A DNA stretch of 44,844 nt from positions 1 to 44,844 of the IMG/VR virus record IMGVR_UViG_3300032225_000646. One strand, 5' to 3'. The notes beneath the pieces were generated by a model. That model saw only the letters and a list, made by a program, of their open reading frames with translations. It was not told the DNA's origin and ran no database searches. This stretch comes from a virus (Duplodnaviria > Caudoviricetes). Made by a program: the position numbers and the translations under genes. This document shows positions 18,425 to 42,271 of the stretch, piece by piece; position 1 is the stretch's first letter, and each line of letters opens with the position of its first letter.

Positions 18425-18835
18425 TTATTTGGTTGGTTTACGTACTGTTACTGCATACTCGGACATTGAATTGAGACCGGCTGGCACCATGCCGGGATTC
18501 TCCTCTAAAAACATAGACATATTCTTCTGCGCTATGCGCTTCTCAAACAGATCTAGTGCGTCATGCTCTATAACAAACGTCTTGAAGGAATCCCAGTCGT
18601 CTGTGTAGTAGCGTGTCTTTTGCGACAAAATAATAGTGCCTTCATCTGTGCGCACAGAGCTACTGCCCAATGCCAACATCTGATCTTTCATGGCGTTCTT
18701 AATTTCTTCTTGCTTCGTTTTAAGTTCTTCAATCTGACTCTCATACTCCTTGGTCAGTTCTTGAACCTTTGTGTATATCTTGCGGTACACACGAGCTAGT
18801 TTATCTAGCGGTATTACATCCTCTTCGTTTGGCAT
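18425..18835 (-). CDS. Conserved phage coiled-coil protein
   Basis: Start MPNEEDV at 18835 after AAGGAGC; coiled coil followed by beta-rich 'SVRTDEGT..DWDSF' region typical of genes next to phage SSBs. Confidence 0.65.
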   Translation of the reverse strand: MPNEEDVIPLDKLARVYRKIYTKVQELTKEYESQIEELKTKQEEIKNAMKDQMLALGSSSVRTDEGTIILSQKTRYYTDDWDSFKTFVIEHDALDLFEKRIAQKNMSMFLEENPGMVPAGLNSMSEYAVTVRKPTK

Positions 18836-27920: not shown

Positions 27921-27950
27921 GATTTACTTCTCCTCGTTTGATTGATTTAA

Positions 27951-30775: not shown

Positions 30776-30818
30776 GATGCTTATATCCTCGTTTGATTAG
30801 TACTACTGTTTTTTAGAA

Positions 30819-34583: not shown

Positions 34584-35222
34584 TCAATACCCTACCTTTC
34601 TTCGTTTGATTACTTCGTTGATTTTGATGTCGGGAGAGATTTCTCTCCCACTACTTGCCTGCTCAAGCAGATCTTGTCTTATTCGTTTTGCCTCTGCGTA
34701 GTTGTAGCTATGTTGATCTAGCATGGCGTGTTGTAGGAATGTCGGGTCTTCGGGCATTTGGTTCTTGTATGAGTAATAGCGGTTAGCGTATGCCGTGACC
34801 TGTGTTTGTAGGTTCGACTTGAGTTCGTCTTGCCACAGGGTTCGCTTTTTCTGCCAATACTCTTTCATGACCTTGCTTCGTCTGCGTGGTAGTGCTTCAC
34901 GCTTTTCTGTTATCAAGGCTTCGCCAATGATGGGGTTCATGTCACCGCTTGTGATCTTGTTGCGTAGTTCTTTGATCGACAGGGGTGTTCTGCGTTTGCG
35001 TTGGTTTCTACAGTCTCTGCACAATGAACTGTACAGTGTGTGCCGTGTGGTTAGGTTCGGTTTGCGTAGCAACGCTTTGCTCTGTGCAAGGGTGAGCACC
35101 CGATGGAATTCTTTTTTGGGTTTGGTTTTACCGCAAGTTTTGCACAGAAGAGTGATGACCGAAGTTGGGAGAGAATTCTCTCCGAGTTGTGTGTTGACGG
35201 ATTTTCCCTTGTGCTGGTGCAT
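34584..35222 (-). CDS. Basic zinc-finger protein
   Basis: Start MHQHKG after AAGGAG; CKTC..CRDC, K/R-rich. Confidence 0.65.
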   Translation of the reverse strand: MHQHKGKSVNTQLGENSLPTSVITLLCKTCGKTKPKKEFHRVLTLAQSKALLRKPNLTTRHTLYSSLCRDCRNQRKRRTPLSIKELRNKITSGDMNPIIGEALITEKREALPRRRSKVMKEYWQKKRTLWQDELKSNLQTQVTAYANRYYSYKNQMPEDPTFLQHAMLDQHSYNYAEAKRIRQDLLEQASSGREISPDIKINEVIKRRKVGY

Positions 35223-35960: not shown

Positions 35961-36001
35961 GACTACTCCTTCGTTGGTTGTGGAGAGAATTCTCTCCGAG
36001 G

Positions 36002-36178: not shown

Positions 36179-36221
36179 GGTAATACTCCTTCGTTGGTTG
36201 GGAGAGAATTCTCTCCGAGGT

Positions 36222-36864: not shown

Positions 36865-36919
36865 AATGTAATACTCCTTCGTTTGGTTAATGCCGAATGA
36901 ACCCTCACTCGACAACAAC

Positions 36920-36945: not shown

Positions 36946-37195
36946 CGGCTTGTGCAATGATTTGACCCCACCCGATACCCACCAAGCCTAATGGCGTTAA
37001 ACGAGGCTAGCTAGGTGCAACACTGTTCCTCAGCCATTCCGTTGAATTTTGTCAAATCTTGTAAATTCCGACCCCCCGGGGGTACTATAAAAAATTCAGA
37101 AGGGCATGTCTAATTTTATACAGAAAAGTGCATAAAATTTTAATAAAAAATACGGTACAATTGGTGCAGTGCAATATAACCTAAAGGAGAAAACC

Positions 37196-37318
37196 ATGTT
37201 TGATTTCACTAAACAAACCAAGCAGTTCGAAGAGTTGGCCCAGCGCATCAAAGAAGTAAACGATTTCTGGGTTGACGCATTCATCTCAAGCATCAAGCAG
37301 TTTACAAAAACCAAGTAA
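37196..37318 (+). CDS. Small 40-aa amphipathic protein (not in ORF track)
   Basis: AAGGAG RBS; MFDFTKQTKQFEELAQRIKEVNDFWVDAFISSIKQFTKTK*; TACAAT at 37156-37161. Confidence 0.7.
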   Translation: MFDFTKQTKQFEELAQRIKEVNDFWVDAFISSIKQFTKTK

Positions 37319-37319
37319 T

Positions 37320-37349
37320 AAAAAAACCCCCACGTCTTAGGTGGGGGTT
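37320..37349 (-). terminator. Intrinsic terminator, U-tract on minus strand (may be bidirectional)
   Basis: 9-bp stem AACCCCCAC/GTGGGGGTT, 7-nt loop, A7 run at 37320-37326 on +. Confidence 0.8.
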
Positions 37350-37411
37350 CAAACGAGGATGTACTAATCATCAACAACTAACGCCCAAACGAAGGAGTAA
37401 AAAACGTTAGT
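37320..37411 (-). ncRNA. Candidate trans-acting small RNA antisense to early-gene RBS leaders
   Basis: Minus-strand TATAAT at 37418-37423, 5' stem-loop, 11-15 nt complementarity to five leaders, terminator. Confidence 0.55.
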
Positions 37412-37494
37412 AAGTAAATTATACCCAAAAAACTAAAAACAAGATATACTCCAGCCATACGTGAGCACCACACGCAACCAAAGGGGAATAGCAG

Positions 37495-38070
37495 TTGTTT
37501 TTAGAACACTTAGTTTCAGCATCCGCCGCAGACTACACGCCTGAACTTAATCAGGCTAACGACTTTGATCCCCTAGAAAACCTTACCCCAGCGCAAACCC
37601 TAAGCGCACAACACAAAACCAGTAAGTGGCTAGAGGCATTTGCTGATGATGACGAAGCTACGTTAACAGAAGCCCAACAAGAAAAAACGGTTGACGCATT
37701 CAACGCTTTAACCCGACACGACCCGTCCGCCAAACAACGCCTTTTAGAATTAGATTTACCAGAAGAGATAAAAACAGCCGTAGGCATGGTGACGGCATAC
37801 CAGTGGAAGTTTATTGAGCAGGCAGAAAACCTTAGAAGCATGGCAGTGACGCATATAGTCAAAGAAGTTAGCCACCCAGATGCAAGAATCCGCTTAAAAG
37901 CATTAGAAATGCTGGGTAAGGTTACAGAAGTGGCCTTGTTCACAGACAGGGTATCCGTAAAATCAGAAGATGTTACGGACGAAGAGCTTGATGCCCGCAT
38001 TAAAGAGAAGCTGGGTAAGTACATGGGCGCTGTTGATGTGGTAGATGCCGATGTTAAGGACGTGGAGTAG
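37495..38070 (+). CDS. Putative terminase small subunit
   Basis: TTG start, directly upstream of TerL; RLKALEMLGK..V.LFTDR motif; TATACT at 37445-37450. Confidence 0.6.
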   Translation: MFLEHLVSASAADYTPELNQANDFDPLENLTPAQTLSAQHKTSKWLEAFADDDEATLTEAQQEKTVDAFNALTRHDPSAKQRLLELDLPEEIKTAVGMVTAYQWKFIEQAENLRSMAVTHIVKEVSHPDARIRLKALEMLGKVTEVALFTDRVSVKSEDVTDEELDARIKEKLGKYMGAVDVVDADVKDVE

Positions 38071-42064: not shown

Positions 42065-42271
42065 ATGGATGTACTAACCATGAATTTTTTACAAGTATTA
42101 CGCGATAAATTTCGTGCAGATATGAACAATTTCACTGATGATTTGGCAAATGGTCAGTGCGCGTCCTTTGAGCAGTACAAAGAACTTTGCGGGGTGATTC
42201 GAGGTCTAGCCTATGCAGAGCGCCATTTAATTGACCTCGCTGAAAACATAGAGAAAGAAAACGATGAGTGA
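42065..42271 (+). CDS. Conserved small head-module protein
   Basis: 68 aa, 'YKELCGVIRGL', between portal and GroES-like gene. Confidence 0.65.
   Translation: MDVLTMNFLQVLRDKFRADMNNFTDDLANGQCASFEQYKELCGVIRGLAYAERHLIDLAENIEKENDE

Follow-up and report, generated by a model that had tools for sequence, protein, structure and literature searches.

The short CI RNA of satellite phage P4 gives immunity by pairing with the leader RNA of the element itself; it works by ending transcription prematurely and arises through processing of the very transcript that it targets. The c4 RNA of phages P1 and P7 (~80 nt) carries two loop seeds, one of which occludes a ribosome-binding site (RBS) and the other of which gives specificity (PMC5320573, in excerpt). 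RBS occlusion is a mode of translational repression by sRNAs (PMC5688073, in excerpt), and the phage RNAs sar (P22), OOP and aQ (lambda), VpdS, PreS and 24B_1 tune developmental genes by base pairing, the excerpted parts of the review concerned (PMC12197685) containing no phage sRNA aimed at a dispersed set of early genes. The turn-off of early genes in phages lacking an RNA polymerase of their own or a known repressor is poorly understood.

The locus described here lies in a stretch of phage DNA of 44,844 bases (the window), which is the whole of record IMGVR_UViG_3300032225_000646 (67% complete). Like c4, the RNA predicted from it would be phage-encoded and trans-acting, with seeds complementary to the ribosome-binding region of the phage's own genes (here judged by sequence complementarity). 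A sequence-only reading of the window had proposed a minus-strand sRNA gene whose product pairs with leaders of the same phage; this proposal is now well supported by (i) conservation, (ii) stem covariation, (iii) strand asymmetry and (iv) lineage-specific matching.

Genomic setting and anatomy of the predicted RNA

Minus-strand genes of the window extend from ~36.9 kb down to 13.7 kb, in the order small unknown genes, AAA ATPase/DUF2201/DUF3150 block, and DNA polymerase, helicase and primase, while the plus-strand arm, from 37.5 kb, encodes TerS, TerL, portal and GroES. From this gene content we infer that the minus arm is early and the plus arm late. Family searches confirmed DUF2201, DUF3150, TerS, TerL and portal, and the ATPase corresponds to PHROG 1297. 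TerL is ~50% identical to that of HTVC023P/027P-type phages (pelagiphages; the HTVC023P-type lineage is described in PMC9599517, in excerpt). Cultured phages gave no DNA match and no TerS match to the window and an ATPase match of only ~25%, and the unit model R1 found no match in the three cultured-phage regions examined.

The features of the unit and its predicted targets are collected in Table 1. The positions of the -10 box, stem, seeds and U tract given by the sequence-only reading, its complements of 15, 12, 12, 12 and 11 nt and its permuted 10-mer were all exact on recheck. The 92-nt minus-strand sequence has a predicted fold of -28 kcal/mol (z -3.06), composed of a 5' hairpin, whose stem U-G pairs extend to 10 bp, a weak middle hairpin and the terminator. 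Searches with R1 found one copy of the unit per record. The UCCU core is predicted to be unpaired in all 23 RNAs that possess it (23/23); in many distant copies the anti-SD lies in the linker after a short hairpin, not in the loop. The unit favours the minus strand, on which the 5' hairpin is more stable in 45/47 loci and the U tract is found in 47/47 (plus strand, 0/47).

Table 1. Features of the predicted small RNA unit and its predicted targets in the window.
Feature	Position	Strand	Remarks
Predicted ~92-nt small RNA	37320..37411	-	start inferred 7 nt after the -10 box
-10 hexamer TATAAT	37418..37423	-	no consensus -35 here (2/6 match)
5' hairpin	37377..37411	-	nt 1-10 with 26-35; core stem 37405-37411 with 37377-37383
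Seed 1, anti-SD loop	37385..37399	-	core CUUCGUUU nearly invariant in the close clade
Weak second hairpin	37358..37372	-	37357-37367 (loop plus 3' arm) complementary to the late 68-aa gene at its start
Seed 2	37349..37360	-	complements ATPase and DUF3150 leaders; variable among relatives
Intrinsic terminator	37320..37350	-	GC stem; U tract on the minus strand only
40-aa ORF with good SD	37196..37318	+	converges on the terminator; homologues in some relatives only
-10-like hexamer TATACT, divergent	37445..37450	+	upstream of terS; 21 bp from the -10 box of the RNA
Terminase small subunit gene terS	37495..38070	+	divergent neighbour of the RNA in every relative with a readable neighbour
SD leader of first early gene (140 aa, start 36864)	36872..36886	-	predicted target, 15-nt complement
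Leader of 58-aa gene (start 36178)	36184..36195	-	predicted target, 12 nt
Leader of 49-aa gene (start 35960)	35964..35975	-	predicted target, 12 nt
AAA ATPase leader (start 30775)	30785..30796	-	predicted target, 12 nt; most recurrent early target
DUF3150 leader (start 27920)	27931..27941	-	predicted target, 11 nt
Start-codon region of late 68-aa gene (42065), between portal and GroES	42067..42077	+	predicted target, 11 nt

Coding explanations of the predicted transcript were rejected. The statement that no credible ORF accounts for it holds in that the minus-strand ORF of 91-93 codons lacks an SD and is not conserved, and needs amendment in that this ORF does start within the unit; ATGs inside the unit open ORFs of inconsistent length among relatives. 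The 40-aa ORF has no Pfam or PHROG match, and read-through from it would yield antisense to the predicted RNA.

The gap between the back-to-back -10 boxes is 20-23 bp in 32/47 loci, 34 bp in 14 and 44 bp in one. In the window (37418-37450) the two boxes lie two helical turns apart around an A tract, a spacing that is conserved, and polymerases at both boxes would likely exclude each other. In most units the -10 boxes have no -35, an arrangement that would fit joint activation at the late stage. Seven relatives possess a 5/6 -35 box, which would rather fit an RNA expressed from entry onward that builds up with a delay, and which argues against strictly late, activator-dependent expression; some relatives have a full sigma70-type promoter. 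An extended -10 (TGn) was considered and does not fit most copies. The only full sigma70-like promoter in the region of the window (37084-37112, minus strand; TAGACA-17-TATAGT) adjoins a CCCCCCGGGGG run; similar sites are present in a few relatives, and it is a candidate early promoter or genome-end region. The terS gene begins with TTG, and its leader (37460-37497, plus strand) is conserved and contains a CGTG...CACG hairpin adjoining the SD.

Among relatives, conservation, whose lack the sequence-only reading had named as a refutation, was evident. The unit adjoins terS, on the opposite strand and just upstream, in 70/78 TerS loci; five loci are too short and three were not detected by script, one of which (L080) has a divergent unit, so that the unit is found in 70/73 close relatives with enough sequence. 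Distant phages reached through the ATPase (48-66% identity) have terS in range in 27/32 loci, and the -10 box, hairpin, CU-rich segment and terminator occupy the same place in 26/27 of these (three of the 26 units were read by eye). In 41 aligned copies, 94.3% of stem cells are paired and two-sided changes occur at 8/9 tested pairs, the covariation score being 0.669, against 0.279 for shuffled and at most 0.095 for slid alignments. The automatic alignment A2 mis-registers the stem, and its consensus fold is uninformative.

Pattern scans returned 53 stretches from the viral collection, in which all 14 on new contigs adjoin terS, 41 from metagenomes (37 adjoining terS, four cut short), and no contig with the pattern from the genome collection. 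Applied to five MAGs, R1 gave matches in two, only on phage-like contigs, and an RNA sequence identical to that of the window occurs in a separately assembled metagenome contig (L316).

Several loci depart from the common arrangement. L077/L078 and L249 have terS and no unit in the usual place, L077/L078 having a weak opposite-strand R1 match with a tRNA-like sequence nearby; in L113 a tRNA-like sequence follows the terminator. Directly after the RNA terminator, 19/47 distinct loci (L005, L020, L021, L032 and the L015-L050 clade) carry a second unit, possibly another small RNA, composed of TATACT, a short stem with a UCACGU loop and a long GC stem, and sometimes repeated; it is absent from the window.

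Complementarity to the phage's own leaders

When the window's RNA was shuffled with both anti-SD cores fixed, one of 10,000 sequences matched five leaders over at least 11 nt (58 leaders). When 60 gene starts were scanned with a correction for accessibility, the top three places went to the seed-1 targets, place 5 to the start of the late 68-aa gene and places 7-8 to the ATPase and DUF3150 leaders. For the UGAUUAGUAC segment, assigned by the sequence-only reading to a permuted site in the ATPase leader, a better partner was found, since 37357-37367 is an 11-nt complement of the late gene start at 42065; the segment is kept in two relatives whose ATPase leader lacks the permuted site. Simultaneous pairing of the permuted 10-mer and seed 2 with the ATPase leader appears to be ruled out by geometry.

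Other motifs of the early arm were recorded. The first codons of a 136-aa Pam3 gp33-like/Gam-like gene (18815-18832, minus strand) contain adjoining complements of 10 nt to seed 1 and 9 nt to seed 2, and the motif is kept in 7/11 orthologue rows, but it is coding. The leader of a 56-aa gene (34600-34609, minus strand) carries CAAACGAAG upstream of the SD, a motif that recurs in relatives before unrelated genes. A 16-bp perfect palindrome, GGAGAGAATTCTCTCC, is present (≤2 mismatches) in eight copies in the window, in the early arm only (32487, 34280, 34633, 35168, 35574, 35982, 36201 and 36655), inside and between genes and twice just upstream of seed-1 target leaders; there are seven copies in G005 and 0-1 in the other 22 records checked, and it is either operator-like or a mobile repeat.

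Co-evolution of seeds and leaders was analyzed with gene starts from a simple caller that recovers the window's main genes. Within the close clade (29 representatives; five late leaders overlapping the RNA gene left out), exact complements of the own RNA of at least 9 nt occur in 79/610 early vs 4/222 late leaders, and ACG precedes the purine core in 66/410 early vs 2/145 late leaders (7.4 expected). By distance, 78/491 leaders within 12.5 kb match, compared with 5/140 beyond. The advantage of the own RNA over other RNAs is modest (p 0.0002, or 0.002 when the window is left out; late control p 0.97).

The cross-lineage comparison comprised 31 records, with RNA ends derived by a fixed rule from the positions of the -10 box and terminator; near-duplicates L227, L234 and L252 were dropped, L249 has no unit, and the matches of L182, L183 and the close clade were already known before these RNA boundaries were set. 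Exact complements of at least 10 nt link early leaders to their own RNA in 53/504 cases and to RNAs of other lineages in 278/13,558 (13 lineages, hand-drawn, with related genomes not fully independent). The permutation p was at most 0.001 in all 200 one-member-per-lineage draws, with or without the discovery lineage, and same-sense and unreversed controls gave 0/504. The covariation of seeds and leaders that the sequence-only reading had suggested looking for is present at this level.

In 15 distant records, 27/231 early vs 2/331 late leaders match the own RNA (strong-SD leaders only: 27/192 vs 1/145), and this lack of matching among late leaders speaks against an explanation by an SD style that both groups take from the host. 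Seed words differ by lineage (CACAAGGAGA in L223, AACGAAGGAG in L239, AGGAGAAUCA in L253 and L259, UAAAGGAAAA in L220), that of L182, AAACACAA, being a non-SD word, and matches reach 4-9 nt past the SD core, some covering start codons or non-SD bases (L182, L240 and L248).

Finer tests gave a less uniform picture. The own RNA beat every other-lineage RNA in only 12/31 records, and G003, L231, L236 and L238 have no own-RNA match above 8 nt. Single seed variants in the close clade changed in the expected direction in 12/13 cases, two nominally at p<0.05, a weak result with imperfect lineage clustering; searches for more copies of two variant seeds added little. A per-orthologue test of 63 families showed no overall early-late difference for seed 1 (mean z 0.08 early, 0.27 late), one low-scoring late family with z 3.46 being a likely false positive, and the two best 3'-segment matches stood at about 0.04 and 0.09 after correction for 126 tests.

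The five genes named by the sequence-only reading are not conserved as a target set: the seed motif is present in orthologue leaders of the first early gene in 2/11 cases, of the ATPase in 8/13 and of DUF3150 in 6/10. Across lineages, matches of at least 9 nt were found to the ATPase leader in 12/25 records and to DUF3150-sized genes in 10/16. Covariation with the 3' segment of the RNA is strongest for the DUF2201 leader (z 4.1), although in the window this leader is no exact target. The predicted target set thus has a changing part, the small first genes, and a recurring part made up of the AAA-ATPase/DUF2201/DUF3150 block and the late 68-aa gene.

This late gene lies outside the set of early targets first proposed. 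It is the best late partner in 14/31 records (≤2.9 expected), and an own-RNA match of at least 9 nt is present for it in 9/31 records vs 1/498 other late genes. In L026 and L023, matched changes in the RNA and the gene give helices of 14 and 17 bp; another clade matches the gene through seed 1, where it is the only one of 28 late families with the motif, and it accounts for 3/6 late matches in the distant set. Its strong SD may explain part of this matching. The encoded protein has a confident predicted helical hairpin and no family, PDB or fold match.

Proposed function and alternative explanations

As the exposed bases match the phage's own ribosome-binding sites phage by phage, the unit is likely a built-in translational off-switch. 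Our favoured interpretation, which we hold to be probable, is a self-directed trans-acting RNA, a predicted repressor of translation from early leaders and one late gene, that serves delayed shut-off in productive infection. Host sigma70-type RNA polymerase would transcribe the unit into a ~70-100-nt RNA, whose unpaired CU core would nucleate on the SD while its flanks read the phage-specific leader extension. Pairing, possibly aided by Hfq, would occlude the 30S site and block translation. With rising RNA levels, output from the early small genes and from the AAA-ATPase/DUF2201/DUF3150 block would fall, and that of the 68-aa late protein would be capped. The timing of this shut-off, delayed within a productive infection, is the weakest step of the scheme.

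A related role, in immunity or superinfection exclusion, is unlikely though the best placed of the alternatives. A phage already established in the cell, at a late stage of infection or persisting as a carrier, would use the RNA to keep the early mRNAs of newly arriving kin silent. Phages with diverged seeds would then belong to different immunity groups, as in the case of c4 from P1 vs P7, whose specificity lies in variable loops (PMC5320573, in excerpt). Seeds and leaders do diverge together by lineage, and the relatives with a complete sigma70-type promoter would fit such a role; the seed-1 core, however, hardly varies within the large close clade, whereas an immunity determinant would be expected to diversify fast. 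Searches found no tyrosine integrase (0/5 records, three near-complete), no resolvase or ParA (0/5 complete records), and no CsrA or hfq (five records each), which makes classical lysogeny unlikely and favours shut-off in productive infection over immunity. A TerL search of the genome collection likewise gave 11 matches, all to MAG contigs of mixed taxa, only one of which, L189, showed non-phage-looking neighbours. In L189 (G021:C24, 83,776 bases) the late arm and RNA unit abut genes unlike the phage early arm, the arrangement being either an integration junction or a chimeric assembly.

Slightly less credible is a broad anti-SD RNA directed mainly against host mRNAs (host shut-off), with phage leaders matching through the host SD style. 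Betaproteobacterial sRNAs have CU-rich RBS complements and many predicted targets (PMC5688073 and bioRxiv 2024.11.19.624354, both in excerpt), no single phage target is as well conserved as seed 1, and weak, sub-threshold matches to the Burkholderia anti-hemB/toxic sRNA models RF02837 (E 0.003-0.045) and RF02278 occur at the locus in 5/12 relatives; five other distant loci have no such match (0/5). Against this reading, late leaders, which serve the same host, almost never match even with strong SDs, and the matches extend past the SD core as described above.

An origin at the DNA level is improbable: the unit could hold an inverted copy of a repeated leader motif, its likeness to the leaders maintained through copying or recombination, or else a site bound by a protein, and the hairpin and terminator would then only insulate a bidirectional promoter. 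Early leaders within one genome share repeated motifs, the two -10 boxes stand back-to-back, and G-U pairs are not in excess over A-C pairs beside own-RNA matches, which keeps copying in consideration. The matches, however, span only 10-16 bp, are always antisense, and coincide at their sites with ribosome-binding regions; the bases involved are predicted to be single-stranded within a covarying fold whose distance to the -10 box is fixed.

The sequence-only reading also offered, as an alternative, a decoy role for the plus strand, whose RNA would present GGA motifs to a leader-binding protein of the CsrA type. This is very improbable. That strand does have two GGA-containing leader-like words, and transcription of the 40-aa ORF could read into the region, but the only structures that it forms are the terminator and some weak helices; both the fold and the U tract point to the minus strand, and no CsrA was found in the five records.

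If the off-switch interpretation holds, early-gene turn-off would have a compact solution in one RNA whose sequence evolves together with the ribosome-binding sites of a scattered early regulon, and targets could be predicted for each phage in turn. The same interpretation points to the AAA-ATPase/DUF2201/DUF3150 block and the conserved 68-aa late protein as dose-sensitive products. The natural seed and leader variants form a ready cross-specificity matrix and could serve as orthogonal translational switches. More tentatively, the system might be an RNA address code, in which lineage-private SD extensions and one RNA would give both repressor-free shut-off and kin-specific immunity without recognisable lysogeny genes; we regard this as possible and rather doubtful.

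Comparison with known RNAs

No Rfam family reached its cut-off in the window or the relatives scanned; RF02278 and RF02837 scored 16.9 and 18.4 bits in the window and 29.9 and 30.7 in the best relatives, against cut-offs of 50 and 49.5. No match was found in tables 3-6 of the Fremin 2023 catalogue (PMC10690425, in excerpt), and no published account of this RNA in the literature searched. On sequence criteria the unit is a predicted phage RNA family that is real and, as far as Rfam and those tables go, uncatalogued.

With P4 CI, which pairs with its own element's leader RNA, there is little likeness in this respect, as the match of the predicted RNA to the 5' end of the neighbouring predicted transcript is at most 7 nt in 36 loci. 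CsrB/RsmZ-type decoys need several GGA motifs in hairpin loops of the transcribed strand, whereas the favoured strand here has UCC. In the excerpted review (PMC12197685), sar, OOP and aQ are antisense to a single gene, and VpdS, PreS and 24B_1 are encoded by temperate phages, their targets being host genes, Hfq or an antirepressor; the unit described here has several dispersed predicted targets.

The c4 RNA is an RNase P-cut cloverleaf that keeps lysogeny through one operon, whereas the unit extends from a -10 box to a terminator, has several dispersed predicted targets, and has a predicted fold that is a chain of separate hairpins and the terminator instead of a cloverleaf. The Rfam C4 model gave no match in relatives and none in the window, whether at the gathering cut-off or with E relaxed to 10. 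The c4 RNA belongs to temperate phages with an immI icd-ant operon; among the 79/107 G004 proteins scanned against Pfam no repressor or antirepressor family was found, most early proteins being without a family.

In appearance, the unit resembles RF02837 anti-hemB/ncS04, the toxic double-hairpin RNAs of RF02278, Bordetella S17S and Neisseria NmsRs, which share a 5' hairpin, an unpaired CU-rich RBS complement and a terminator. The betaproteobacterial CU-rich sRNAs are 60-105 nt long and end in a GC terminator with a U tail, as does the unit, and such a terminator is compatible with an Hfq-dependent sRNA. These sRNAs are chromosomal, concern host metabolism and have conserved seeds, whereas in the present unit the flanks of the seed vary along with the leaders of the same phage. 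The predicted RNA is like P1/P7 c4 in its proposed mode and like the betaproteobacterial CU-rich sRNAs in looks, and is a member of neither group.
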